From contig CAVTWD010000015.1 of assembly GCA_963738325.1 (NCBI GenBank), forward strand, positions 30,767-94,766: a DNA stretch of 64,000 bases, given 5' to 3'. Below the pieces are notes generated by a model. It was not told the origin of the DNA and did no database searches. It worked only from the letters and a program-made list of their open reading frames with translations. Source of the stretch: an uncultured Acidimicrobiales bacterium (GTDB lineage Bacteria > Actinomycetota > Acidimicrobiia > Acidimicrobiales > Ilumatobacteraceae). Both the position numbers and the translations under genes were made by a program. Of this stretch, positions 1 through 56,061 are shown in pieces. Each line of letters begins with the position of its first letter. Position 1 is the first letter of the stretch.

Positions 1-442
1 GCCGCCGCACACGCCGCATACGGGGCGCTGCGTGCGCCCGGTTGGTCACCAGCGGTGTGCAGCGGCTCGCAATGCCGGCTGCAGATGACGCCGTCGTCGC
101 GAAATGGCCACGGGCCCCGTCGGCCGTCACCACACCCGAGCCGGGACAAGGTCGACGTGGGTGGTTCGACCCCAGGCCACGGCGTCGGCGACAGACGGCG
201 CGGACCTCGCCGGCGGTCGCCGACGTTCTCCCACCCGGACCAAGGCTCAGGTCGGTCGGATCGTCGCCGCTGGACCACCAAGCTCGGGAGCCGGTGACAT
301 CTTCGCTCGAGCCGTTTCGTGTCGCCGCGAGTCCTTCGATGCCGGCCTGTGCCGGCGAGTCCTGTGCACCTGGTGTGCACTTAGCGCGAGCGAGGGGTCC
401 GCTTCGGGACGCCTCTATCGGTCTTGACCTGGGCTGTCCCGG

Positions 443-515
443 TGGGCGATACGGGCCTCGATCCCATGACCTCCACGGTGTGAACGTGGCGCTCTTCCAA
501 CTGAGCTAATCGCCC
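443..515 (-). tRNA. tRNA-Val (anticodon CAC)
   Basis: The reverse complement reads GGGCGATTAGCTCAGTTGGAAGAGCGCCACGTTCACACCGTGGAGGTCATGGGATCGAGGCCCGTATCGCCCA. It has a 7-bp acceptor stem, D-arm, anticodon loop TTCACAC (anticodon CAC), T-arm and discriminator A. CCA is not encoded. Confidence 0.6.
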
Positions 516-4482: not shown

Positions 4483-4950
4483 TGGCCGTGACCAAACGGG
4501 CCGCGCCGGTTCTCGACGACACGGATCGGGCCATCATCGAACAGCTCCAGGGCGACGGCCGGCTCCCCTACACGCGCCTCGGCCACGCGGTGGGCCTCTC
4601 GGAAGCGGCCGTGCGCCAACGCGTGCAGCGCCTCATCGACGGGGGCGTGATGCAGGTGGTGGCCGTCACCGATCCCCTCTCGCTCGGCCTGCGACGCATG
4701 GCGATGATCGGCCTTCGCACCGAAGGCGACGTCGTCCGCGCTGGCGGACAAGGTCAGCGCGCTGGATGACGTCGACTACGTCGTCGTGACGGCAGGCTCC
4801 TTCGACATCCTCGTGGAGGTCGTCGTCGAGGACGACGCCGCGCTGCTCGAGCTGGTGGGACGGCTGCGCTCGGTCCCCGGGGTGCGCTCGACCGAGACGT
4901 TCATCTACCTCCGCCTCGTCAAGCAGACTTATGCATGGGGGGCTCACTGA
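4482..4950 (+). pseudogene. Lrp/AsnC-family regulator (AldR-like) with an internal +1 frameshift near 4730
   Basis: The N-terminal HTH part (MAVTKRAAPVLDDTDRAIIEQLQGDGRLPYTRLGHAVGLSEAAVRQRV) is in one frame. The C-terminal RAM domain (ALADKVSALDDVDYVVVTAGSFDILVEVVVEDD...) is in the +1 frame. Its start overlaps the ALDH stop (TGATG). Confidence 0.65.
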
Positions 4951-25627: not shown

Positions 25628-28600
25628 TCAGCCATGGCTCGCCGCCATGACCAGCTCCAGCGTCTTCTTCTCGGCCAGTCCCTCCCGTTCGGCCCGAGCC
25701 ATGACCTCGACCACCCGCTTGTAGTCCTTCGGCATGACCTTGCGGAACGAGGGCCCGGCGACGGACCACGCGTCGATCAACCGCGCTCCCAGCGTCGATC
25801 CCGTGTAGGTGACGTGGGCACGGATCGCGTCGTGCACGAAGGCGAGGTCCTCATCGCTGAGGGCCTCGAGCTCGACCATCTCCGGGTTGACCAGCGCCGG
25901 AAAGCGACCCTCCGGGTCGTACACGTAAGCGATGCCGCCCGACATTCCGGCCCCGAAGTTCCGCCCGGTCTCGCCGAGCACCACGACCCGACCACCCGTC
26001 ATGTACTCGCACCCGTGGTCACCCACACCTTCGACCACCGCGAGGGCACCGGAGTTCCGAACGCAGAAGCGCTCCCCCACGACGCCGCGCAGGTAGAGCT
26101 CCCCGCCGGTGGCTCCGTACGCGATGACGTTGCCGGCGATCACGTTCTCCTCTGCCGCGAACCGGGCCGCCCGATCCGGAAACACCGCGACGCGCCCCCC
26201 TGACAGGCCCTTGGCCAGGTAGTCGTTCGCGTCGCCTTCCAGCAGGAGGGTGAGGCCGCGAGGCAGGAAGGCGCCGAAGCTCTGGCCCGCCGAGCCCCGC
26301 AGGTGCAGCTCGACCGTGCCGTCCGGCAGCCCCTCGGGCCCCCAACGGCGGGTGACCTCGGATCCGAGCATGGTGCCGACCGTGCGGTTGATGTTCCGCA
26401 CCCGGAGCTCGGCCCGCACCTGGTGGCCGTCTTCGAGGGCGAGCTCGCACAAACGGATGAGATCTCGGTCGAGGGCACGATCGAGCCCGTGATCCTGGCG
26501 GCGGCTGTTGAGCATCGTCTGCTCGTAGGGGTTCTCGGGCACCTGCAGGATGGGACGCAGGTCGAGCCCGCGCGCCTTCCAGTGGTCGACGGCGGCGCGG
26601 GTGTCGAGCAATTCGGCGTGACCGACGGCCTCGGCCATCGAGCGGAAGCCGAGCTCGGCCAGCAGCTCGCGCACCTCTTCGGCGATGTACTCGAAGAACG
26701 TCACCACGAACTCGGGCTGGCCGGTGAAACGACGGCGCAGCTCCGGGTTCTGGGTCGCGATGCCGACCGGGCAGGTGTCCAAGTGGCAGACGCGCATCAT
26801 CACGCATCCCGACACGACGAGGGGGGCCGTGGCGAAGCCGAACTCCTCGGCCCCGAGGAGCGCGGCGATCACGACGTCACGCCCTGTCTTCATCTGCCCG
26901 TCGACCTGCACGACGATCCGGTCGCGCAGCCCGTTCAGCAGCAAGGTCTGCTGTGTCTCGGCCAGGCCGAGCTCCCAGGGCGCCCCGGCGTGCTTCAGCG
27001 AGGTGAGCGGCGAGGCCCCGGTCCCGCCGTCGTGGCCCGAGATGAGCACCACGTCGGCATGCGCCTTCGACACGCCGGCGGCCACGGTGCCGACCCCGAC
27101 CTCGGCGACCAGCTTCACGTGGATGCGGGCCCGTGGGTTGGAGTTCTTCAGATCGTGGATGAGCTGCTTCAGGTCCTCGATCGAGTAGATGTCGTGGTGG
27201 GGCGGTGGGCTGATGAGCCCGACGCCCGGGGTCGAGTACCGGGTCTTCGCGATCCACGGGTAGACCTTGTGGCCCGGCAGCTGGCCCCCCTCGCCCGGCT
27301 TGGCGCCTTGGGCCATCTTGATCTGGAGGTCGTCCGCGCTGACGAGGTACTCGCTCGTGACGCCGAAGCGGGCCGAGGCCACCTGTTTGATGGCCGAGCG
27401 CTTCGAGTCGCCGTTCGCCAGCGGCACGTAGCGCTCCGGGTCCTCGCCGCCTTCACCGGTGTTGCTCTTGCCGCCGAGGCGGTTCATGGCGATGGCGAGC
27501 GTCTCGTGGGCTTCGGCCGAGATCGAGCCGTAGCTCATGGCGCCCGTGGCGAAGCGGCGCACGATGGCGCTGACCGGCTCGACCTCCTCGATGGGCACGG
27601 GCGGCCGCTCACCGAAGCGGAGCTCGAACAGCCCCCGTAGCGTGGCCAGCCGTTGCGACTGGTCGTTGACCGCGCTCGTGTACTGCTTGAAGACGTCGTA
27701 TCGGCGGGCGCGGGTCGCGTGCTGGAGGCGGAAGACCGTCTCGGGGTTGAACAGGTGGTAGTCGCCCTCCCGGCGCCATTGGTACTCGCCACCGAGCTCG
27801 AGCCGGCGATGAGCCCGCCCCTCCGGCCGCTCGGGGTGGGCCGAACGATGGCGGGCCGCCACTTCGGCCGCGAGCTCGTCGAGGCCGACCCCGCCGAGGC
27901 GGCTGACCGTGCCCGTGAAGTACTCCTCCACGAGCTCCGCTCCCAACCCGATCGCTTCGAACACCTGGGCACCGGTGTAAGAGGCGACCGTCGAGATGCC
28001 CATCTTCGACATGACCTTCAGCACGCCCTTGCCCGCCGCCTTGATGTAGCGGCGCACCGCGGTGGCCGGGTCGAGGCCACCCATGCCGTGGAGGCCCTCG
28101 TTGATCATGTCCTCGATCGACTCGAAGGCGAGGTACGGGTTGATGGCCCCGGCCCCGTAGCCGACGAGCAGCGCCATGTGGTGCACTTCGCGGGCGTCGC
28201 CGGCCTCGATGACGAGCCCGACCTTGGTGCGCGTCTTCTCGCGGATGAGATGGTGGTGCACGGCCGCCGTCAACAGCAGCGACGGGATGGGCGCGTAGAC
28301 CTCGTCGGCGTTGCGGTCGGAGAGCACGATGATGCGGGCCCCGTTGCTGATGGCCTGGCTGACCTGCGAGCGCACGGCGTCGAGAGCGCGGCGCAACGCC
28401 AACCCGCCCCCGGCCACCCGGTAGAGCCCGCTGATGATGGCGGCCGCGAACCCGGGCATGTCGCCGTCGGCGTTGATGTGGATCAGCTTGGCCAGCTCGT
28501 CGTTGTCGATCACCGGGAACGGCAGTTGTACCTGCCGGCACGATGCGGGACCGGGATGGAGCAGGTTGCCCTCCGGCCCGATCGTCGAGCCGAGCGCGGT

Positions 28601-30199
28601 CACCTGCTCCTCGCGGATGGCGTCCAGCGGCGGGTTGGTGACCTGCGCGAACAGTTGCTGGAAGTAGTCGAACAAGAGTCGGGGCCGATCCGAGAGCACC
28701 GCGATGGGGGTGTCCGTGCCCATCGAGCCGATCGGCTCGTAGCCGGCCTTCGCCATGGGCGCGAGGATGATCTTCAGTTCCTCGTGGGTGTAGCCGAACA
28801 CTTGTTGGCGGCGAAGCACCGACTCGTGGCTGTAGGTGACGTGCTCGCGGGCGGGCAGGTCCTCCAGTCGGACGATGCCCGCATGTAGCCAGTCGCCGTA
28901 CGGCAACTCGGCGGCCAACGCGGCCTTGATGTCCTCATCGTCGACGATCCGGCCCTGCGCGGTGTCGACGAGGAACATCCGGCCCGGTTGGAGGCGGCCC
29001 TTGCGCACGACGGTGGCCGGGTCGACGTCGACCACGCCGACCTCCGAGGCCATGATCACGCGGTCGTCGTCGGTCACCCAGTAGCGGCTGGGGCGCAGAC
29101 CGTTGCGATCGAGGACGGCTCCGATCACGGTGCCGTCGGTAAAGGCCACCGACGCCGGGCCGTCCCACGGCTCCACGAGGCTGGCGTGGAACTGGTAGAA
29201 GGCGCGCTTCGCCCGATCCATCGACTCGTGGTTCTCCCACGCTTCGGGGATCATCATGAGCACCGCGTGGGGCAGGGGGCGGCCACCGAGGTGAAGCAGC
29301 TCGAGGACCTCGTCGAAGCTGGCGGAGTCGGACGCACCCGGGGTGCAGATCGGGAAGATCCGCTCGAGGTCGCCGGGGAACAGATCGCTGGCGAGGAGAG
29401 CCTCGCGGGCCCGCATCCAGTTGCGGTTGCCCTGCACCGTGTTGATCTCGCCGTTGTGGGCCAGGTAGCGGTACGGATGGGCGAGGGGCCACGAGGGGAA
29501 GGTGTTGGTGGAGAACCGGCTGTGCACGAGGGCGAGGGCCGATTCGAAGCGCTCGTCGGCGAGATCGGGGAAGAACTCCCCCAGCTGCGCGGTGGTGAGC
29601 ATGCCCTTGTAGATCAAGGTTCGGCACGACAGCGACGGGAAGTAGACGGTGTGCTCGTGCTCGGCGCGCTTGCGGAGGCAGAACAGCTTGCGCTCGAGCT
29701 CGAGGCCGGTCGCACCCGCGCCATCGGTCAGGAAGAGCTGCCGGAAGGCGGGCATGACCCGGAGGGCGGTCGCGCCGATGGAGGAAGCGTCGGTGGGCAC
29801 GGGCCGCCAACCCACGACCACGAGACCTTCCTCGTCGGCGAGCTCCTCTACGGCCGCGGCGACCTTGTCGGCCTGCTCGGGGTCGGCCGGTAGGAAGGCC
29901 ATCCCGACGCCGTAGCCGCCCGCAGGCGGCAGCGGCGCGCCGATGACGGCCCGCAGGAAGCGGTCGGGCACCTGCGTGAGGATCCCGGCGCCGTCGCCGG
30001 TGTTCACCTCTGCGCCCGAGGCCCCCCGGTGCGCCAGGTTGCACACCGCGCCGAGGCCCGTGGCGACGATGTCGTGGCTCGGGCGGCCTTTGATGTCGAC
30101 CACGAACGAGACACCGCAGGCGTCGTGCTCGAAGCGAGGGTCGTAGAGGCCGTGGCGGGCGGGCGGGCCGCCGAAGGGCGCGGGTTGGTCGGTGGGCAT
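25628..30199 (-). CDS. gltB: glutamate synthase large subunit
   Basis: N-terminal amidotransferase (HDACGVSF), FMN and GXGXG domains. About 1520 aa. Confidence 0.9.
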
Positions 30200-30309
30200 C
30201 GTCCTCGTTCCACGACGTCGGCTTGCGGCTGCTGTGGACGCAGGGGACGACGCTGGCCGGCTGCGCAACCTCCTACTCTAGCCGCCGGCCCCCATCCCGG
30301 GTGGTCTTT

Positions 30310-31119
30310 TCAGTCGGTGAAGACCGGCTCCCGACGCTCGAAGTTGGCCGTGATCGCCTCGACCTGGTTGGGCGAGCCGATCAGCCCGCCGATCACCCGC
30401 CGCTCCTCGGCGAACTGGTCGGCCGGCGAGGCGTCGAGCGAGCGGTTGAGCAGCGCCTTGGCCCCGCGGACGGCCTCCGGGTTGCGTCCGGCGATCTCCC
30501 TCGCCACCGCAAGGGCGTCGAGGAGCGGGTTGGCGGTCAGGTGGGTGACCAGGCCGAGCTGGTAGCCCTCCTCGCCGGTCACGATCTTGGCGGTCAGCAC
30601 GAGCTCTTTGGCGATGTCCGGGCGCACGAGACGGGCGAGCATGTAGGTGCCGGTCATGTCGGGCACGAGGCCCCAGTGCACCTCCCGCACCGACAGTTGC
30701 GCGTCGGGCGTGCAGAAGCGGATGTCGGCACCAAGGGCGATCTGCAGTCCGCCACCGAGGGCGTGACCGTGGATGGCCGCGAGCACCGGCGCCTCGATCT
30801 CTTGCCAGACCCAGCACACCTGCTGGCCCAGATGGGTGATGCGCCCCGGAGCCATGGAGGCCGGGCTGGCACCGGCTTCGCCCTCGGTCGCCGGCGCGCC
30901 GGCCATCGCCTGGAAGCCGCCGAAGTCGAGACCCGCGCAGAACGAGGCACCCTCTCCCGACAGCACCACCGCCCGAACGCCGGGCTCGACCTTGAGCTGC
31001 TCACCGACCTCGGCCAGGGCGGCGAACATCGGGCCGTCGAGCGCGTTGCGCTTGTCAGGGCGGTTGAGGCGAACGTCGGCGACACCGGCCTCGATCGTGC
31101 AGGTCACTCGGTCGGACAT
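30310..31119 (-). CDS. enoyl-CoA hydratase/isomerase (crotonase fold)
   Basis: Crotonase signature LSGEGASFCAGLDF ... HGHALGGGLQIALGADIR. Confidence 0.8.
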   Translation of the reverse strand: MSDRVTCTIEAGVADVRLNRPDKRNALDGPMFAALAEVGEQLKVEPGVRAVVLSGEGASFCAGLDFGGFQAMAGAPATEGEAGASPASMAPGRITHLGQQVCWVWQEIEAPVLAAIHGHALGGGLQIALGADIRFCTPDAQLSVREVHWGLVPDMTGTYMLARLVRPDIAKELVLTAKIVTGEEGYQLGLVTHLTANPLLDALAVAREIAGRNPEAVRGAKALLNRSLDASPADQFAEERRVIGGLIGSPNQVEAITANFERREPVFTD

Positions 31120-31204
31120 GCCCGCAGTCTGTCACCACTCCCTGTGATCTGACGCGGTTGAACGTCGCATGGCACCGCTCAGCCGCGCGGAATCACCAGC
31201 GCCG

Positions 31205-31937
31205 TCACTCCACGAGGCGGAGACCGGTGGGCGCGATGCTCGGCTCGGCTTGGGGCAGGTCGACGGCGAACTCCGTGCGGTGCCCGGGGAAGACGTGGGC
31301 GCTGAGCAGCACCGGCTTGCCGTCGGTGTCGCGCGTCACCCGTTCGCAGTGCAACACGGGCGACCCGGGCGGGATGCCGAGGCGCCGCCGCGTCGGCGGG
31401 TTCGGCGGCCGCGGCCCCGATGGTCTGCGTGGCCCCACCGAGCGGCACGGCCAGCAGCTCGTAGAACGGCGAACGCTCGACCGCGGCGCGCGAGAGACGC
31501 TCGGCCAGGGGCGCCGGGCACCACACGGTGACGAGCGCGAACGGCTCTCCGTCGGCGAGGTTGACGCGCTTGACCCGCAGCACCCGGTCGCAGCCGAGGA
31601 TCCTGCGCACCCGAGGGTCGGCGGGGACGAAGGCGAACTCCAACACGTTGCGCTCGGGGTGCACACCGATCGCTTCGAGCTGGGCCTCGATCGTCGCCAG
31701 CCGCCCGAGGCTCTGGCGCAGCGGATCACCGGCCACGAACCAGCCGACCCCCTGGCGAGCGTCGAGCAGGCCGTCGTCGCGCAGGAGCTCCAGCGCCCGC
31801 CGGATCGTGACGCGGCTGGCGTGGTAGGCCACCTGCAGCTCGGCCTCGCTCGGTAGCAGCCGGCCGGCCGGGAACTCGCCGCTCTCCACCCGCCGCCGCA
31901 GCGCGTCGGCGATCTCCCGGTAGCGGATGGTGCGCAC
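31205..31937 (-). pseudogene. GntR/HutC-family regulator (HTH plus UTRA) with a +1 frameshift near 31385
   Basis: The N-terminus (TIRYREIADALRRRVESGEFPAGRLLPSEAELQVAYHASRVTIRRALELL) is in one frame. The UTRA C-terminus (LGIPPGSPVLHCERVTRDTDGKPVLLSAHVFPGHRTEFAVDL) is in the next frame, after a GCGGCGGCG run. Confidence 0.65.
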
Positions 31938-31989
31938 GGCCGCCCGACCCGCCCGCCCCTCAGCGCTTCCGTGTCGTCGCGCGCCGGGC

Positions 31990-32797
31990 GCCTGGCCTCG
32001 GCGACGATGGCCACAGCCGCCTCGGGCGTGAGGGCGCGGAAGGTGACGGTCTCCTCCAGGAAGAGCCGGACCCGCTCGGCGTCGTGGTCGAGGTAGCCGA
32101 TGGACAGATCCTCGCCGGTGGTGAGCTCGAAGTCACCACCCCGCAGGCTGAGCACCACCGCGCAGGCGACGGCTGGCGCCCAGACGATCGGCCCGTCGAG
32201 CAACAGGCGGACGTGATTCAGCACGGGATAGCCGCCGTAGGCCGTCTCGGTGACGCCCGTGTACGGATCGGGCCCGAGGGCGATGGCGTACGGCCCGCCG
32301 ATGCCGGCTTCACGCAGCACGCCGATGGCTTGCGCCACCGCGGTGGGGAAGCGGTCGAAGTCGTCCGGCATCGGGATGGGCCGATGCGGGGTGGCCTCGG
32401 TGACGCCTTCGATGGCTCCCGGTCGGTAGCCGTTGAAGACGAGGTTGTCCTCGGCGAAGGCGATGCGACGCGACGCTTCGACGAGGGGGTCGAGGTCCGG
32501 GTCGGGCGCGCCGCGGTCGACGTCGTCGAGCACCGTGCGGGTGAGGGCGAACTCGGCCCGCAGCTCGATGAGCGGCTGGAGCCGCCGGGCGGCGGCGGAG
32601 GTCCCGGGCGCGGGTGTGTCGGCCAGCGGGGCGACGCGTCCGAGGTCGACCGCAGAGTGCGTCCAGCCGAGCGGCCCCGCGAAGTCGACGACCTTACGGG
32701 CGCCGAGGAAGGTGGCGAGGCGGCCTCGGGCTTCGTCGTCGATGACCGCCCAGGCCGTCTCGGTGATCGGCGCGATCTCCCGGTAGAGGTGGTTCAC
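31990..32797 (-). CDS. family-1 encapsulin shell protein (HK97 fold, Cfp29/linocin-like); 3' end undefined because no in-frame stop is present
   Basis: VNHLYREIAPITETAWAVIDDEARGRLATFLGARKVVDF...GYPVLNHVRLLLDGPIVWAPAVACAVVLSLRGGDFELTTGEDLSIGYLDHDAERVRLFLEETVTFRAL... matches M. tuberculosis Cfp29 throughout. A GTG start overlaps the cargo stop (GTGA). The ORF reads through into GntR, so a frameshift near the C-terminus is likely. Confidence 0.7.
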
Positions 32798-33192
32798 TCC
32801 GTCACCCCCGGCTTCAGGCTGCCCAGGCCGAGCGAGCCGCTGGTCGCAGCGGCGGGCCCTCCGCTGGCTTCGGCGGCGGCCTCGACCGCCACGATGTCCC
32901 CGGTCGTGAAGAGGTACGTGCGCAGGTGGCCGTCGAAGATGGGGTCGTGGCGCCGCAGCCATTCGATCGTCATGGCCGCGTGCTCCTTCTCCTCGTCGCG
33001 GTTGTGGCCGAGGACGGCGGCCAGAGAGTCGTCGGCTGTGGCGTCGACCCGCTGCGAGTACCAGTCCACGGCCTCGAGCTCTTCCTTGATGGAGGTGAGC
33101 GCGCGGTGGAGATCGATCGTGGAGCCCGACAGCTTCCCTTCGTCCTCGTGCAGGCCGTCGCTCGCCATGAACACCCTTTCTGGACTCGCCAC
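32794..33192 (-). CDS. encapsulated ferritin-like cargo protein (EncFtn) with a C-terminal targeting peptide
   Basis: EELEAVDWYSQRVDATADDSLAAVLGHNRDEEKEHAAMTIEWLRRHDPIFDGHLRTYLF resembles EncFtn. The C-terminal SGSLGLGSLKPG matches the encapsulin cargo-loading peptide consensus. Confidence 0.8.
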   Translation of the reverse strand: MASPERVFMASDGLHEDEGKLSGSTIDLHRALTSIKEELEAVDWYSQRVDATADDSLAAVLGHNRDEEKEHAAMTIEWLRRHDPIFDGHLRTYLFTTGDIVAVEAAAEASGGPAAATSGSLGLGSLKPGVTE

Positions 33193-33348
33193 TTGCTTCG
33201 GATCGTGCCGGGTCGGACACTACCTGCGCCCGGCAGAGGCGAAACCTGCCGAACTTCTGGCGGACTTCCGGTGACAACTTGTCTGCAACTTGTATTAGAC
33301 TGAGAGCGAAGCCGAATCAGAGCGAGCACTCGACCGAAAGGGGACAGC

Positions 33349-35637
33349 ATGGCCGTGACCGCAGGAACACCCATCGAGCTCGTCGAGCGCGTGTACGCCA
33401 CGCTTCTCGACCGGTTGGCGATCGGGCGGCGCCGCCTCGGGCGCGGACTCACCCTCACCGAGAAGATCCTCCTCAACCATCTCGACGATCCGGAGGGTCA
33501 GGGGCTCGAGCGGGGACGGAGCTACGCAGACTTCCGGCCGGACCGCGTCGCCATGCAAGACGCCACCGCGCAGATGGCCCTCCTGCAGTTCATGACCGCG
33601 GGCCTGGCCGAGGTGGCGGTGCCGAGCACGGTGCACTGCGACCACTTGATCCAAGCTCGGGCAGGCGCCGACATCGACCTCAAGTTCGCGCTCGACATCA
33701 ACAGCGAGGTGTACGAGTTCCTGCGCTCGGTCTCCGCGAAATATGGCATCGGCTTCTGGAAGCCCGGCAGCGGGATCATCCACCAGGTCGTGCTCGAGCA
33801 CTACGCCTTCCCCGGCGGGATGATGATCGGCACCGACAGCCACACCCCCAACGCCGGAGGGCTCGGCATGGTGGCCATCGGCGTGGGTGGCGCGGACGCG
33901 GTCGACGTGATGACGGGGTTCCCGTTCAACGTGCGCTGGCCCAAGGTGATCGGCGTCCACTTGACAGGTTCGTTGTCGGGTTGGTCGGCGCCGAAGGATG
34001 TCATCCTTCGCGTGGCCGAGATCCTCACCGTGGCCGGTGGCACGGGCGCCATCGTCGAGTACTTCGGTCCCGGCGCCGATTCCATCAGCGCCACGGGGAA
34101 GGCGACGATCTGCAACATGGGCGCCGAGATCGGCGCCACCACGTCGGTGTTCCCGTTCGACGACAACATGGTCGCCTACCTCAAGGCGACGGGACGCGAA
34201 GCGATCGCCGATGCCGCCACGAAGGTGGTCGCCGACCTCCGGCCCGACGACACCGTCGTCGCAGATCCCGCCTCGGCCTACGACCGCGTGGTCGAGATCG
34301 ACCTCGACACCCTGCGGCCACTGATCAACGGGCCCGACAGCCCCGACCTCGCCCATCCCGTGAGCGAGCGTAGGGGCGTGGGCGAAGGAGCACGGTGTGC
34401 CGGTCGAGGTCAGCTCCGCCTTGATCGGGTCGTGCACGAACTCGTCTTACGAGGACATCACGCGCGCCGCGTCGATCGCCCGCCAGGCCGCGGCCAAGGG
34501 GTTGCGGGCCCGGACGCAGCTGCTCATCACGCCTGGTTCCGAGCAGGTGCGGGCCACCATCGAGCGCGATGGCCTCCTGGCCGACCTCGAGGCCATCGGC
34601 GGCGAGGTGCTCGCCAACGCCTGCGGACCGTGCATCGGGCAGTGGGAGCGCACCGACCTCGACCCGTCGAAGGTCAACACGATCGTCAACAGCTACAACC
34701 GCAACTTCCCGAAGCGCAACGACGGCAACGCCAACACCAAGGCGTTCGTCACGTCGCCCGACGTGGTGATCGCGTACGCCCTGTCGGGCACGCTGGAGTT
34801 CGACCCCGTGTCCGACACGCTCCGCAACGACGACGGGGTGGAGGTCACGCTCGACCCGCCGGTCGGTGAGATCCTCCCGGCCAGGGGCTTCGACCCCGGG
34901 CAGAGCGGGTTCCTCGCTCCCCCGGCCGACGGCTCGGGCGTCTCCGTGGTCGTCGACCCGGCGAGCGAACGCCTCCAGCTCCTCGATGCCTTCCCGGCCT
35001 GGGACGGTGGGGACTACCAAGAGCTCCCCGTGCTCATGAAGGCGCGGGGCAAGTGCACGACGGATCACATCTCGGCCGCGGGGAAATGGCTGACCTACCG
35101 CGGCCACCTCGAGAACATCTCGGGCAATCTCTTCCTCGGCGTGGTCAACGCCTTCACGGGTGCGGTCGGGGAAGGCAAGGACCACCGCGACGGAGGCACT
35201 CGTTCGTACCCCGACATCGCGAAGGGCTACTCCGAGGCGGGCATCGCCTGGTGCGCGGTGGGCGACCAGAACTACGGCGAAGGGTCCTCGCGTGAGCACG
35301 CCGCGATGGAGCCGCGGTTCCGCAACGGCCGCGTGATCTTCGCCCGGTCCTTCGCCCGCATCCACGAGACGAACCTCAAGAAGCAGGGGCTGCTGCCGCT
35401 GACGTTCTCCGACCCGGCCACCTACGACCTGATCGACGAGGAGGATCGGATCTCGGTGCTCGGCCTGGCCGATCTGGCCCCGGACGTGCCCGTGCGCTGC
35501 AAGATCCACAAGCCCGACGGCACGACCGTCGACTTCGAGTGCACCCACACGTTCTCACCAGAGCAGATCGAGTGGTTCCAGCGCCGGCTCGGCGCTCAAC
35601 ATCATCCGCGGCCGCGCCGGACGTTAAGGAGCCGGCC
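33349..35637 (+). pseudogene. acn: aconitate hydratase (mitochondrial/AcnA-type) with two +1 frameshifts (about 34375 and about 35575)
   Basis: N-terminal domains are in the 33349 frame, the swivel domain in the 34397 frame ([26 protein letters not shown]...), and the true C-terminus (AGSALNIIRGRAGR*) in a third frame. Confidence 0.7.
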
Positions 35638-37297: not shown

Positions 37298-37501
37298 GAA
37301 CCAGGGCCTCTCAACCCAGGAGCCCACGCGATCGGGGGAATCGCATTGCGGACCCCGAGACGATGTGGGCCTTGGGGGTGGCGCCACGTCGTTCTTGTGA
37401 AAGTATGCACGATTTCGCTGTCTCGCACAACCCTTTGTTACCGACAAGTATCCTGACCTGGACGAACGAGACGGGGGCGCCCGGCTCGTAGGCTCCGGAC
37501 G

Positions 37502-38850
37502 ATGCCCCCGGTCGGGTTACGGGTCCGCACTCCCGGCGCTGTCAGCGTGGCCGTGGGCGAGATCGGCGGCCGGTCGGCCGTGGTGGTGGAGATCGAGGCC
37601 AGCGAGCATCTGGGCGCGCTGTCGTCGATCGCCTCGGAGAGCCTCGAGCTGGCCGCCCGCCTGGCGCGGGCCGAACGCCTCCCGCTCGTGGTGATCCTCG
37701 CGTCGAGCGGCGCCGACCTCACCGAGGGTATGGCCGCGCTCCATGGCTGGGGACTGGCCGCTCGTGCCCTGGCCGACTGCTCCGGCATCGTGCCCGTGCT
37801 GATGTCCGTCACGGGCCCGGCGGTGTCGGGCCCGGCGCTGCTGCTCGGCCTCGCCGACCACGTCGTGATGACCGAGTCGGCCTACGCGTTCGTCAGCGGC
37901 CCGACATGGTCGCCGAGTTCACCGGCGTCCAGGTCGACAACGAGCGAGCTCGGGGGGCGCGCACCGCGCACGCCCGCTACACCGGCGTGGCGTCGCTCGT
38001 CGTGCACGACGACGAGGCGGCCCGGGAGGCGCGTCGGCGACCTCCTCGCCTACCTCCCGCCGCACAACGACGCCGAACCCCCGCGTGGCCGCACCGACGA
38101 CCCGCCCGACCGCCTGACGCCCGAGGCGGGGGTGCTGTTGCCGCCGGCGCCGACTGGCAGCTACGACGTCCGCGCCGTGATCGCGAGCGGTGGCCGACGA
38201 GGCGAGCTTGCTCGAGCTGCGCGCCCGCTGGGCCCCGAACCTCGTCACCGCGTTCGCCACGATCGCCGGCCGGCCCGTCGGCATGCGTCGCGAACCAGCC
38301 GCTCGCCATCGCCGGCACCCTCGACATCCCGGCGTCGCAGAAGGGCGCCCGTTTCGTCGCCTTCTGCGACGCCTTCAACCTGCCGATCATCACCCTGGTC
38401 GACACCCCGGGCTTCTACCCCGGCAAGGACCTCGAGTGGCGGGGGATGATCCGCCACGGCGCCCAGCTCGTCTTCGCCTACGCCCGCGCCACGGTGCCCC
38501 GCGATCTGCGTGATCCTGCGCAAGTCCTATGGCGGCGCCTACATCGTCATGGACTCGAAGACGATGGGCAACGACCTCTGCCTGGCCTGGCCCGGCGCCG
38601 AGCTGGCGGTCATGGGGGCGAAAGGTGCGGTCGAGATCCTGCACCGGCGGGCAGCGCCGGAGGAGCGGGCGCGGCGCGAGGCCGACTACGAGGAGCGCCT
38701 CCTCAACCCGTACATCGCCGCCGAGCGGGGCTACGTCGACGCCGTGATCGACCCCGCCGAGACCCGTCGCGAGGTCGCGCAGGCGCTCGAGCTGCTCGCC
38801 GCAAGCGGGAGCGGCTCGTCGCCCGCAAGCACGACAACTCGCCGCTCTGA
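37502..38850 (+). pseudogene. acyl-CoA carboxylase carboxyltransferase (AccD/PccB-like) with about 6 frameshifts
   Basis: Segments alternate between three frames: ...[19 protein letters not shown]...[17 protein letters not shown]...[28 protein letters not shown]...[48 protein letters not shown]...[18 protein letters not shown]...KHDNSPL*. Confidence 0.65.
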
Positions 38851-38932
38851 TCCGAGGTGAGGTCGAAGTGGGACGCCGGTGTCCCGGCCGATAGTGTCCA
38901 CATCCGGGTGTGCCGACCGAAAGGGGAGCCAG

Positions 38933-51228: not shown

Positions 51229-54097
51229 TCAGACGAGCACCCGCACTTGATCGAAGTCAGCGCGGGGCGGCGGCTCGACGCGCACCTGGGCGTCGAGCAC
51301 CCAGACCCCGCTTCGCGATGCGAGGAACGGGTTGAGCCGCGCCGAGCGGATCTCCGGGAAGTCGTCAGCCAGCTGTCCGACCCGCCCCAGCACATCGAGC
51401 ACGGTGTCCGGGTCCACGCCGAGCGCGCTGAGCGCCTCCGCCGCCCTCGACGACGACACGAGCTCGCGCCCGTCGAGGTCGGTGAGCGGCAGGCTCCGCA
51501 CCGGCCGATCGGCGATGGCGTCCGCGAACGCGCCGCCGAGACCGAACGACACCACCGGGCCGAAGGAAGGATGGTGCTCGACCCCGATGAACGTCTCGAC
51601 GCCCCCGGGGACCATGCGCTGCACCACCGCCTCCGCCATGGCCCCGCCGAGGGTGGCGGTCATCCGCTGGTACGAGCCGCGCAACTGCGCCTCGGTCTGG
51701 ATGTCGAGCGCCACTCCCCCGCTCTCGGAGCGGGCCAGGTGGGGGAAGCCGGACGCCTTGAGGGCGACGGGGTAGCCGACGGCCTGGGCCGCGGCCACGG
51801 CCTCGTCGATATTGGTGGTGGCGATGGCCGGCGCCGTCGGGATGCCGTACGCGGCGAGCAGACGATGGGTGACGAGAAGGGGCAGGAGCGTGCCTCGGGG
51901 TCGGAGCACGAGCGCCTGCTCGATGATCTCGCGGGCCGCGTCCTCGTCGAGTCCGGGGTAGCTGGGGACGACCCCCTCGGGCCGGGCCCGCCAGGCCGCA
52001 TAGCGGCTGATGCGGCCGAGGACGGCGACGGCCGGTTCGGGGAAGGCGAAGGCCGGCACCACGCTGCCGGGCAGCAGCGGGCCGTCGTCCTTGCCGAGGG
52101 TGACGGTCAGGACCGGCTTGTCGTGGCCGGCGGCCGCCTCGGCGATGGCGGCGGCGACGTCGTGGTGACCGATCACGAGGGGAGGCGTGTAGATGGCGAG
52201 CACCGCGTCGACGCCGGGATCGGTGAGCAAGTGCTCGAGGGCCGCCCGGTAGTCGGCCGGGACCGAACGGTAAGTCAGGTCGAGGGGGTTGGCGACGATC
52301 ACGTCGTCCGCGAGGTTGGCCGCAAGCTCGTCACGCGTGTCCACGGCGAGCTCGGCCACTTCGAGGTGGGCGGTGGCAAAGCCGTCCATGGCCAGGATGG
52401 CCGGGCTCGACGAGTTCGTGATGATGGCGACGCGCGGTCCACATGGGAGGGGTTGCCCGGCCAGCACCCGCCCCACGTCGAACAGCTCGCGAACGGTCTC
52501 GACCCGGATCACGCCCGCCTGCTGGTAGAGCGCGTCGGCGGCGACGTCGGCCGCCGACCCGCGTCCCGACTTCACGGCGACGATCGGCTTTCGCCGTGAC
52601 ACCCGCCGAGCGATCCGGCCGAACTTCTTCGGGTTGCCGAATCCTTCGGTGTAGAGGAGGACGGCGTCCGTGGCGGAGTCCTCGTACCAGTAGTTGAGGA
52701 GGTCGTTGGCGCTCACATCGCCCTTGTTGCCCAACGACACGAACGTCGAGATGCCGGCGCCGAGCCGCTTGGCCAGCTCCAGCATGGCCGTGCCGAGGGG
52801 CCCGGATTGCAGGGACACCGCGAGCCGGCCGGGGAGCACGTCGAGCGGAGCGAAGCTGGCGTGCAGCCGAGCGTCGGGGGCGGTGGCGATGATGCCCATC
52901 GAGCCGGGGCCGACGATGCGCATCCCGTTCCGGCGGGCGAGGTCGACGACCTCGCGCTGCAAGGCCGCCCCTTCCGGCCCGGCGTCGGCGAAGCCGGTGC
53001 TCACGATCACGGCGCCACGCACCCGCTTCTCTCCGCACTGGCGCACGATCTCGAGGACCTCGTTGGCGGGCACCGCGATCACGGCGAGATGCACGTCGTC
53101 GGGCACGTCGAGCACGCTGGCATACGCCGCGACACTCGCCACGTGCGGCGTGGTGGGATTGACCGGGTAGACGCCGCCGTCGAAGCCGGAGTTGAGGAGG
53201 TTGCGGAAGATCTCCCGGCCGACCGAGCCCGGGCGATCGGAGGCGCCGATCACGGCGACGGCGCGCGGGTGCAGCAGCCGAGCGATGGAGCGGCTCTCGG
53301 CCCGCTGCTCGCGGCGGTCGACGCTCTCCAGGTAGCGCGCTCGTCGGCTCGATGTCGAAGGCGACGTCGATGATCCCGCCCGAGAACTCGTTGGTCACCT
53401 CGAACCCGGCTCGCCGGAAGACGCCGAGCATGGCCCGGTTGTCGGGCAGCACCTCAGCGGTGAAGCGGGCGATGCCCCGCTGCCGGGCGAGGGCGGCCAG
53501 ATGTTCGAGCAAGAGGGTGGCGAGGCCGCGACCTTGGTGCGCGTCGTCGACGGTGAAGGCAACCTCGGCCTCGTCTCGCCCCGGCCAGCGGTCGTACCGG
53601 GCCACCGCGATGATGTCGTCACCGAGAATGGCGACCAGCGCCACCCGGTCCTGCATGTCGACGGTGGTGAACTTCTCGACCTCTTTGTCGGTCAGCCGCG
53701 GCTTCGGCGAGAAGAACCGGAAGTACACGCTCTGCGGGGACAGACGGGAGTGGAAGGCGACGAGGCTCGCCGCGTCATCGGGACCGATCGGGCGCACGTG
53801 CACCGGTGCCCCGTCGGAGAGCACGACGTCGGTCTCCCACGTCGGTGCGTCGTTGGAGGGCACGGGCGGCAGGGTAGTGGGCGGCCTTGGCGAGGTTCTG
53901 CGGCGCGGAGTGACGTTCGGCACCGGATTCGGACCTCGTCTCGCGCCGCGCGTGGCGGACGCCGTGCGGGACGCTCCGTGACGTCGTAGGGTGCGCTCGG
54001 GCACACACGGCGATGGGAGGGCGGTCCATGGCTCAGGCCCCGGCGTCGCTGGCGCGGCGTTCTCCGCTTGGTGACGATCAGGCGCGCTCCGCTGCAT
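51229..54097 (-). pseudogene. Pat-type protein acetyltransferase (N-terminal GNAT plus NDP-forming acyl-CoA synthetase-like CoA-binding/ATP-grasp domains) with a +1 frameshift near 53300; 5' start uncertain (GTG 53853 alternative)
   Basis: The GNAT part (...APTWETDVVLSDGAPVHVRPI...AFTVDDAHQGRGLATLLLEHL) is in the 52331 frame. The remainder (YLESVDRREQRAESRSIARLLHPRAVAVIGASDRPGSVG...) is in the 51229 frame. Confidence 0.65.
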
Positions 54098-54160
54098 CCT
54101 GTCGTGCCCCGTCCGTTGATCCTCCCTGCTCGACGCGCGTTGCCGCCCCCCCACTTTCGA

Positions 54161-54174
54161 TATACCGTGGGTAT
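54161..54174. promoter_or_regulatory. inverted repeat ATACC-GTG-GGTAT abutting the second TetR start (candidate autoregulatory operator)
   Basis: Shares TACC/GGTA half-sites with the operator candidate at 15801. Confidence 0.35.
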
Positions 54175-54175
54175 C

Positions 54176-54790
54176 ATGAATAAGCGGACCTACACGATGC
54201 GGGCAAGGGCTGAGACGGCCCGGGCCACGCATCGCCGGATACTCGAAGCGGCGGAGCAGCTCTTCCTCGAGCGGTGGTACGACGAGGTGACTCTCGAGCA
54301 GGTGGCCGAGCTGGCCGGTGTCTCCAAGCAGACCGTTCTGCGCCGCTTCGGCTCGAAAGAGGCCTTGTTCGCCGCGATGGCCGATGATCTCGGCGCCCAC
54401 ATCGAAAACCGCCGCAACGGTGTGGCCCCGGGCGATCTCGGACGGGCCGCGGCGGTGCTGAGCGCCGACCACGAGCGGACCGCCCTCACGACGACTCGAC
54501 TCGAGGCCATGGAGGAGCGCATCCCTGCACTCGGCCCCATCCTCCGCACCGGGCGTTCGCGCCGTCGGGACTGGGTCGAGCGCACGTTGGCGGCCTTGCT
54601 CCCGCCGAAGGCGAGCAAGGACCATCGCCGCCGCCTGGCGATGGCCATGCTGATCACCAGCCCGGCGGCGTGGAAGACGCTGCGCCACGACCTGGGGCTC
54701 GGCCGCCGCGAGGCCGAGCGGGCGGTCGAGGAGCTGCTCCTCGCCCTTCGTCAGCTCGACGGGCCCGGCCGGAGGCGGCCCTCGTCGTGA
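54176..54790 (+). CDS. TetR-family transcriptional regulator
   Basis: HTH region RRILEAAEQLFLERWYDEVTLEQVAELAGVSKQTVLRRF. The stop overlaps the glycosyltransferase start (GTGA). Confidence 0.8.
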   Translation: MNKRTYTMRARAETARATHRRILEAAEQLFLERWYDEVTLEQVAELAGVSKQTVLRRFGSKEALFAAMADDLGAHIENRRNGVAPGDLGRAAAVLSADHERTALTTTRLEAMEERIPALGPILRTGRSRRRDWVERTLAALLPPKASKDHRRRLAMAMLITSPAAWKTLRHDLGLGRREAERAVEELLLALRQLDGPGRRRPSS

Positions 54791-56061
54791 CCCGCCGGGG
54801 CCGGTTCCTCGTGGCCACGTGGGAGGGCGGCGGCACGTCCACAGTCGAGCTTGCCCTCGCGAAGCGGCTCGTGCGCCGGGGGCACAGCGTGCGGGTCATC
54901 GGCGACCCCACCATCGCGGCGATGGCCGAAGCGGCGGGCTGCGGGTTCACGCCGTGGCGGCGCGCCCCCATCGCCGCAGCTTCGAACCGACCGAGGGGTT
55001 CGTGCGGGATTGGACCGCGCCCACGCCGTTGCACGCCTTCGTCAGCGCCCGCGATCGGCTGCTGTGCGGGCCGGCGTTGGCCTTCGCTCGCGACACCCTC
55101 GACGAGCTCGGCAACCATCCCGCGGACGTGGTCGTGGTGGACATGGCCCTGTTCGGGGTGCTGCTGGCGGCCGAGCGAGCGGGCGTCCCGGCGGCGGTGG
55201 CGATGCCGACGGTCTATGTCCGTCCCACGCCCGGCGCCACGCCCGTCGGCATCGGCTTGACCCCGGCTCGCGGGCCCCTCGGGCGCCAACGCGATCACAT
55301 CCTGACCGCGGCCGCCTCCCGCGCGTGGGACACCGGCACGCCGGCCCTCAACGAGGCTCGCACCGCCCTCGGCCTACCGCGGGTGAGCCATCCGTTCAGC
55401 CTCTACGACGGCGCCGCCCGGGTGCTCGTGCTCACGACCAGCGTCCTCGACCGCCCGCAGGTGGCGCTGCCGCGCAACGTCGTGTACGCGGGACCGGTGC
55501 TCGACGATCCTTCTTGGGCGGGTGACGAGGTGGTCACGCCGCCCGGGACCGACCCGCTCGTGCTGGTGGGCCTGAGCGCCACGTTCCAGGACCAGGCCTC
55601 GATGCTCCAGCGGATCATCACCGCGCTCGGTTCGCTGCCGGTCCGTGGGCTCGTCACGCTCGGCCCTTCGCTCGAGTCGACTCGGTTCGACGCGCCTCCC
55701 AACGTTCGCGGTGATCGGCCGGGCGCCGCACAACAAGGTCCTCCCCAGCGCCGTGGCCATGGTGACGCACGCCGGGCACGGCTCGGTGGTGCGATCCTTG
55801 GCTCATGGGGTGCCGCTCGTCTGCTTGCCGATGGGGCGTGATCAACACGACATCGCCAAGCGAGCGACCCTCGCCGGGACCGCGATCACCGTGCACCGAC
55901 CCCAACCCGCCGCGATCGCCAGGGCCATCGAGGCTCTGCAGCGCGACCCCGGGTACCGGATGGCGGCGGCGACCGCAGCGCGGACGATCGCCGAGGAGGT
56001 GCGGGCCGATCGCGCCATGGGCGAGCTCGAAGCCCTCGCGCTCATGGGCGCCGGCGTGTGA
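54787..56061 (+). pseudogene. GT1-family (MGT/UDP-glycosyltransferase-like) glycosyltransferase with two frameshifts (about 54960 and about 55720)
   Basis: N-terminus RFLVATWEGGGTSTVELALAKRLVRRGHSVRV. The C-terminal sugar-donor motif is ...THAGHGSVVRSLAHGVPLVCLPMGRDQHDIA. The three parts are in three frames. Confidence 0.7.

Follow-up and report, generated by a model that had tools for sequence, protein, structure and literature searches.

Family 1 encapsulins are a well-catalogued class, with 2,383 operons collected in one survey, in which ferritin-like proteins make up the second-largest class of cargo and carry C-terminal targeting peptides (PMC8346489). In the 'Flp' cargo operon type of Andreas & Giessen (2021; PMC8346489), a short ferritin-like cargo with such a C-terminal peptide is encoded directly upstream of the shell protein. 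Here we analyze a locus of this sort, encoding an encapsulated ferritin-like protein (EncFtn) and an encapsulin shell protein, in a 64,000-nucleotide (nt) stretch of contig CAVTWD010000015.1 (assembly GCA_963738325.1) from an uncultured Acidimicrobiales bacterium of the Ilumatobacteraceae. This whole stretch is referred to as the window, and all positions are given within it. The locus does not differ in kind from the 'Flp' operon type, only in its divergent sequence. Overall, it is very probably an ordinary Family 1 EncFtn iron-storage operon that harbors a frameshift arising from a consensus error. The same locus had been singled out in an original prediction for this DNA, whose claims are taken up below where results bear on them.

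The best solved match for both window proteins is the encapsulin:EncFtn system of R. rubrum (EncFtn, PDB 5DA5 and others; shell with cargo, 9ry4/9rzu). The two systems have in common the ferroxidase and entry-site residues of the cargo, a targeting peptide of the GSLGIGSLK type, and the order of cargo gene followed by shell gene. The shell proteins are of similar length, 280 amino acids (aa) in R. rubrum against 278 aa in the window after repair, and both end in a short tail after EAAV. The systems differ in their hosts, an alphaproteobacterium in the one case and an actinobacterium in the other, and in several details of sequence: the window peptide has Leu (GSLGLGSLK) where the consensus has Ile, its shell tail is basic (TTRKR), and its shell gene is frameshifted before the stop. 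The encapsulin:EncFtn system of H. ochraceum (7OE2, 7ODW, 5N5F) is the next solved relative of the cargo, with a match at 1e-33 that includes the localization sequence. Its shell matches at 8e-71 and, as a T=1 particle, with a template modeling (TM) score of 0.83 at about 45% identity, and its gene neighborhood differs from that in the window. Finally, the Family 1 T=1 shell protein Cfp29 of M. tuberculosis (Rv0798c; 7P1T, 7PHM, 9BKX) aligns over its residues 1-263 with residues 1-264 of the window protein at around 1e-72, and with TM scores of 0.85-0.87 to the structural model, which bears out the original prediction of an HK97-fold shell aligning with Cfp29. The cargo of the Cfp29 operon is a DyP peroxidase, whereas that in the window is EncFtn.

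The shell protein and its ferritin-like cargo

The shell gene is located on the minus strand (31960..32797) and spans 838 nt as given, or 837 nt (278 aa plus stop) once a single base is removed. Searches with hidden Markov models of both protein families, along with structural modeling of the shell, had been put forward in the original prediction as ways to check it, and both proteins score above the cut-offs of their models. For the shell, NF041155 ("family 1 encapsulin nanocompartment shell protein") reaches 285.7 bits (cut-off 100) and covers residues 4-264 with its positions 1-261, and PF04454 matches at 1.8e-80 over profile positions 1-253. Among PDB entries, residues 1-264 match the R. 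rubrum type 1 shell at 1.3e-83 and several Cfp29-type shells at about 1e-72 to 1e-76. This 264-residue core contains no internal stops. The NF041155 alignment opens at residue 4, and there is no fused extra domain of the kinds represented by the Family 2 cNMP domain, an N-terminal extension, or an Flp or cytochrome fusion. When the shell frame is read over all of its 530 codons, the only other Pfam match is an out-of-place fragment of the UTRA domain belonging to the next gene.

An AlphaFold2 model of the shell, built with 30 homologs, has a mean predicted local distance difference test (pLDDT) value of 84.5 and a predicted TM score (pTM) of 0.82. In Foldseek comparisons the model superposes on the T=1 Family 1 shells of E. 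coli, M. tuberculosis, K. pneumoniae, and H. ochraceum with TM scores of 0.83-0.87, E values of about 1e-33, and 43-48% identity, as against 20-24% identity and TM scores of about 0.70-0.75 for the T=3 and T=4 shells of M. xanthus EncA and Q. thermotolerans. Since the closest solved relatives by both sequence and fold are T=1 shells, the protein would be expected to form a particle of around 24 nm, and a 60-subunit T=1 assembly of this size is the most likely form predicted from the sequence and the model.

The cargo gene lies immediately upstream of the shell gene on the same strand. The original prediction had described a ferritin-like product of 132 aa, which corresponds to the longest open reading frame, 32794-33192 (minus strand), with a GTG start at 33192. 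The ferritin-like nature of the cargo is upheld, and its length has been revised: the alignment to solved EncFtn proteins opens at residue 1-2 of a 124-aa product that starts at ATG 33168 (32794..33168, minus strand), and the ATG is for this reason the likelier start and 124 aa the more likely length. The product scores 143 bits with TIGR04535 ("encapsulin-associated ferritin-like protein"; cut-off 125) and 131 bits, 1.3e-38, with PF22277, the EncFtn-like family of Pfam (cut-off 27), and scores for the EncB models fall under their cut-offs. Its best solved relative is the EncFtn of R. rubrum, at 3.2e-39. In HMMER alignments, neither 5DA5 nor 33bf, the top PDB hit, departs from the window protein in the segments EELEAVDWY and EEKEH, and in R. 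rubrum numbering E31, E32, E34, W38, Y39, E62, and H65 are all identical to those of R. rubrum EncFtn. We take E32, E62, H65, and Y39 to constitute the ferroxidase center and E31, E34, and W38 the entry site, as in the R. rubrum protein. By analogy with its homologs, EncFtn would form an annular decamer that depends on the shell for retention of the iron mineral (PMC8346489).

The EncFtn product terminates in TSGSLGLGSLKPGVTE, directly followed by the stop codon, and its C-terminal targeting, or cargo-loading, peptide is SGSLGLGSLKPG (32806..32841, minus strand). Within this peptide stretch, GSLGLGSLKPGVTE, the motif SGSLGLGSLK is found 5 residues from the C-terminus, and the GSLG(I/L)GSLK portion aligns with the EncFtn localization sequences of both R. 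rubrum and H. ochraceum. The original prediction had recognized the C-terminus as a targeting peptide and had staked the assignment on its conservation in orthologs. We compared 80 species-level loci that contain a relative of the shell gene, 75 of which have an EncFtn homolog immediately upstream, and in 74 of these 75 EncFtn orthologs the pattern [SA]L.[IL]G.L[KRH] is present within the last 40 residues. The sole ortholog that lacks the motif, at L017 5634-6000 in an MFD-named metagenome-assembled genome (MAG), reads through into the shell gene (427 codons), probably as a result of an assembly frameshift of the type described below. A second motif resembling a targeting peptide, such as might mark a secondary cargo, was absent from the six-frame translation of the window.

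The cargo and shell genes overlap in a GTGA (32794..32797, minus strand), as the original prediction had noted and as can be read directly from the sequence: the EncFtn stop TGA occupies 32796-32794 and the shell start GTG 32797-32795. This 4-nt overlap is the commonest layout among the 75 related loci, and suggests that the two genes are translationally coupled.

By family, catalytic residues, targeting peptide, and fold, the locus is a Family 1 encapsulin with EncFtn as its cargo. Every feature by which Family 1 membership can be assessed in sequence was found here with the exception of an intact stop, that is, an open reading frame that ends from a few to about 25 residues past EAAV. The locus is also a divergent member of this structurally solved class, as its shell protein shares no more than 74% identity with any entry of the protein collection searched and no more than 60% with any GTDB species representative.

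From what is known of characterized homologs, a scheme for the operation of the system may be drawn. EncFtn and the shell would be produced together through coupling at the GTGA, with probable co-transcription of the downstream GntR/HutC regulator gene. The ferroxidase centers of EncFtn (E32/E62/H65-type residues) would oxidize Fe(II), the C-terminal GSLGLGSLK would dock against the interior surface of the HK97-fold shell, and self-assembly of the shell would package EncFtn such that the iron mineral is kept inside the particle. The assembly state, the iron-storage role, and the co-transcription are all assigned here by analogy.

The 3' end of the shell gene and the frameshifts of the window

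As written, the shell frame continues for 530 codons down to position 31205 and crosses the GntR gene with no in-frame stop, just as the original prediction had it. Homologs of the shell stop 1-25 residues past an EAAV(A/P)L motif. For the ten closest, which are 269-281 aa long and 70-74% identical, the usual ending is AI(T/V)xxARPxxRARKR, reached at 278-281 aa in the nearest. In frame 0 the 3' end of the window gene reads AIVAEARRPARDDTEAL (in a longer stretch, AIVAEARRPARDDTEALRGG) and has no stop, and in the +1 frame of a three-frame translation it reads ATTRKR and then reaches a TGA at 31962-31960. This TGA (31960..31962, minus strand), 22 nt upstream of the GntR start, is the ancestral shell stop, now displaced into the +1 frame. 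Comparison of frame 0 with frame +1 and with the tails of homologs places a net +1 frameshift, one inserted base, in the zone 31975..31998 (minus strand). Dropping one base anywhere in this zone repairs the gene, as for instance with the G of CGC-G-ACG, which gives AIVAEARRPARTTRKR followed by the stop.

The repaired shell is 278 aa long, equal to the homologs P0002, P0003, and P0006, and ends in a basic tail, TTRKR, like that of its nearest homologs. The 22 nt that then separate the shell stop from the GntR start compare with 0-48 nt in relatives. The shift is situated no more than 38 nt before the ancestral TGA, and only the last 5-12 residues of the shell are altered. Judged from these reading frames, the lesion is a net +1 indel and neither a lost stop nor a fusion, so that of the two explanations offered in the original prediction, an indel or a lost stop, the former holds and the latter is set aside. 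A natural C-terminal fusion is ruled out by the lengths of the best 120 shell homologs, which range from 267 to 282 aa with none longer than 282 aa. Short basic tails past EAAVAL (RARKR, RRRGRA, YKKKK) are also a feature of this clade (window 31960-31998) and of several relatives from the Thermoleophilia and Acidimicrobiia (P0002-P0009, L001-L003, L005-L009).

A +1 shift of the ribosome within 31975-31998 would likewise restore the conserved tail and stop, and programmed +1 frameshifting could in that way yield the normal 278-aa shell from the sequence as written. We consider this exceedingly improbable and have rejected it, as the close homologs all encode the tail in frame and the zone, GGCGCCCGGCGCGCGACGAC, contains no recognizable slippery or stop-codon-stimulated site. 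Moreover, similar +1 shifts are present in many unrelated genes, which points to a non-biological cause.

At least 12 single-base frameshifts, nearly all of them net +1, split Pfam domains between frames in unrelated genes of the 64-kb window, and the damage to the shell is for that reason no trait of the operon. The sites lie near 4720, 17840, 31381, 31985, 34369, 35583, 36320, 36400, 38270, 38520, 42630, 55700, and 60470. The genes hit encode an AsnC regulator, a reductase-HAD fusion, GntR, the encapsulin, aconitase (twice), HAD/PlsC (twice), a carboxyltransferase (twice), and a zinc-dependent alcohol dehydrogenase, and those for a P450 and a GT1 glycosyltransferase are probably frameshifted too. 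At least 8 genes other than those of the shell, GntR, and aconitase have Pfam domains divided between frames. In GntR, the winged helix-turn-helix and UTRA positions 3-103 are in one frame and UTRA positions 94-139 are in the shell frame. When its DNA is aligned with the intact ortholog of the related locus L081, a single surplus base shows at about 31381-31384. In aconitase, PF00330 positions 1-306 and 333-463 are in different frames. Against the related locus L087 there is an extra C at 34369, and a second 1-nt insertion occurs at about 35580-35586, before the C-terminus AGSALNIIR. The carboxyltransferase gene (37457-38860, plus strand) has opposite shifts, -1 and then +1, about 250 nt apart, with Pfam positions 298-369 out of frame. 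At 51229-54895 (minus strand), adjacent frames carry a GNAT acetyltransferase domain and a region resembling NDP-forming acyl-CoA synthetases (CoA_binding, Succ_CoA_lig, ATP-grasp_5). These may be two genes, or one gene for a Pat-like protein acetyltransferase that a frameshift near 53350 has divided.

The extra base in the shell gene is probably an error in the assembly consensus, and we infer an error of sequence rather than a mutation. The alternative, decidedly unlikely in our estimation, is a genuine frameshift mutation within a genome-wide process of gene decay, which would have left either a very recent shell pseudogene or a 530-aa protein. In the latter form, a real frameshift that gives the shell protein a long exterior extension, the last ~250 residues would be GntR sequence read out of frame and displayed on the outside of the shell; we rate this below the regulatory coupling taken up at the end. 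Consistent with such a mutation are the 530 codons that run without a stop as written, the interruption of many other window genes, and the position of the inserted bases outside homopolymer runs. Against it, the basic tail and TGA of the shell are still intact just past the shift, and no protein among its best 120 homologs exceeds 282 aa. The aconitase and carboxyltransferase, each interrupted twice, keep their full domain complement and an undiminished GC content at third codon positions (GC3), with isolated 1-nt shifts. GC3 is high in the broken genes generally, and neither in-frame stops nor deletions were evident in them, albeit without a gene-by-gene check.

The window aconitase breaks at residues ~340 and ~738, and those of two related long contigs, with aconitases 82-84% identical, break elsewhere: at ~397, 591, and 720 in L090 and at ~345-390, 515, and 605 in L089. 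Both of these contigs bear names of the form contig_NNNNN, which suggest long-read assemblies. In L087, a short-read contig that is 90% identical, aconitase is contiguous over residues 1-443. Random consensus indels are favored because related long contigs break the same gene at other positions and the short-read relative is intact.

Several points weigh against an assembly error. The inserted bases are found outside long homopolymers (e.g. GAG[C]GTA), which is atypical of long-read errors. The frameshifts are also unevenly spread: about 8 fall between 31.2 and 38.9 kb, and the 4.6-kb gltB (25628-30268) is free of them. A uniform error model does not predict such a distribution. In DNA alignments with L081, L085, L086, and L087 the inserted base of the shell could be pinned no more closely than to its 24-nt zone, since the tails of these loci are too divergent to place it exactly. 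Another assembly from this organism, by which error and genuine mutation might be told apart directly, was looked for and not found: an exact look-up of the 132- and 124-aa EncFtn products in a public gene-position index found neither on record, and scans of metagenome DNA with two probes, a 27-mer from the 3' end of the shell gene and a degenerate 29-mer of the conserved GntR core, found nothing.

For annotation, this means that the shell gene is best recorded as encoding 278 aa, with a note on the frameshift, rather than as a 530- or 690-aa fusion or as a pseudogene. The window as a whole is to be handled as indel-prone, with at least 12 genes affected.

The regulator, the aconitase, and the placement of the cassette

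The downstream gene encodes a GntR/HutC regulator (31205..31937, minus strand), as the original prediction had stated, to which can now be added that the gene is itself frameshifted. It starts at GTG 31937 and would specify a winged helix-turn-helix and a UTRA domain in about 243 aa once repaired. PF00392 matches the regulator at 7.4e-19, and intact orthologs share 81-85% identity with the repaired product over 243 aa. When measured on the N-terminal 184 residues of the frameshifted product, its scores miss the equivalog cut-offs of named HutC subfamilies: 89.5 against 220 for HutC, 85.8 against 400 for Rv0792c, the model for the regulator family found near the M. tuberculosis encapsulin, and 76.8 against 156.8 for PhnF. 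Further downstream is a gene for an enoyl-CoA hydratase (ECH; 30310..31119, minus strand; PF00378, 1.6e-39), and the same order occurs in the contigs of P0009 and P0010.

On the other side of the cassette, the divergent aconitase gene (33349..35627, plus strand; PF00330) is present as described in the original prediction, starting at 33349 and frameshifted twice. The repaired protein would have 758 aa, which corresponds to the short form of the enzyme. The best named matches to its N-terminus are from MAGs of the Acidimicrobiales and Ilumatobacteraceae, at around 80-85% identity, which places this high-GC (70.8%) actinobacterium close to that group. Database matches to this N-terminus are mostly truncated products of 320-600 aa, and breaks in aconitase similar to those of L089 and L090 may be widespread among public MAGs from the group. 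The only RNA gene recovered from the window by Rfam and tRNA scans is a tRNA-Val (CAC) at 441-515 (minus strand), with no RNA element in the operon.

The order aconitase <> EncFtn-Enc-GntR-ECH(-CHRD-GltB), where Enc is the shell, is common to the closest shell relatives, those of 71-75% shell identity. L089 and L090 keep the gene order of the window for about 17 kb, through gltB, ECH, GntR, aconitase, HAD/PlsC, carboxyltransferase, and alcohol dehydrogenase genes. In these two contigs (L089 7122-9206, L090 7235-9194) EncFtn and Enc are missing and GntR is directly divergent from aconitase, with a gap of 52 nt in L090. The arrangement suggests that the 1.4-kb cassette was either inserted at the GntR/aconitase junction or lost from it. 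Among the 80 more distant encapsulin loci, none has this GntR beside the shell gene, and two (L059 and L070) have aconitase-like matches, at 32% identity and about 2.3 kb upstream. The cassette has a GC3 of 0.91-0.93, and in both GC content and GC3 is equal to its neighbors. Recent horizontal transfer was rejected on these grounds, and any transfer of the cassette would be an old one.

Two sequence elements in the divergent promoter region merit description. A tandem CAACTTGTnTn, repeated twice with an 11-nt period (33275..33296, no strand assigned), is found 52 nt upstream of the aconitase ATG. L087, L089, and L090 have it ahead of aconitase as well, so that it is conserved with or without the encapsulin. 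It is a candidate operator of the adjacent HutC-type regulator. Some members of the HutC subfamily do use direct repeats, e.g. TGTATTAWTT or TGGTATT (PMC4494728). In the other direction, the regions ahead of EncFtn in the window, L085, and L087 share a conserved GGTAGTGTCCG with the hexamer TAGTGT (33217..33222, minus strand), some 49 nt from the EncFtn ATG. TAGTGT is a candidate -10 element, and GGTAGTGTCCG may be the -10 region of the EncFtn operon. A promoter and terminator consensus scan of 31000-33500, including sigma-70, returned no sites.

The original prediction had read the divergent aconitase, an iron-sulfur (Fe-S) enzyme, as a hint of a link to iron or oxidative stress. In its fullest form this idea would make the cassette, the aconitase, and the HutC-type regulator a single iron/Fe-S stress regulon, in which the regulator would bind the tandem ACTTGTnT sites and control both the aconitase gene and the EncFtn-Enc-GntR operon. 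The recurrence of the gene order in the closest relatives, the retention of the tandem motif upstream of aconitase in four loci, and the use of direct repeats by some HutC-subfamily regulators all speak for it. We nevertheless regard it as unlikely. In L089 and L090, GntR diverges from aconitase with the same motif and without any encapsulin, so the pairing predates the cassette or is independent of it. The distant loci offer no parallel for the GntR, and for the aconitase only the two weak matches. The motif also precedes the candidate -10 element of EncFtn by some 50 nt, a placement better suited to control of the aconitase promoter. Thus, the aconitase is a neighbor by virtue of the position of the cassette, and the suggested link to iron is a weak one. 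In a literature text search that combined 'encapsulin' and 'GntR', the papers returned mention GntR once each, and their titles and abstracts point to none on such a link.

The residual novelty of the locus is the placement of an EncFtn-encapsulin cassette inside a regulator/aconitase divergent promoter region. The presence of the cassette within a pre-existing region of this kind accounts for the gene neighborhood with no need to invoke a function, and at the same time provides a regulatory hypothesis: that in one uncultured Acidimicrobiales-like clade the cassette, placed precisely between the HutC-type regulator gene and an operator/promoter region common to that gene and the divergent aconitase, might be transcribed together with the gene for the regulator of this Fe-S enzyme and be under the control of that regulator. 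We rate this as very unlikely. If it were true, the regulator-controlled cassette would represent a natural coupling of encapsulated iron storage to the expression of aconitase.

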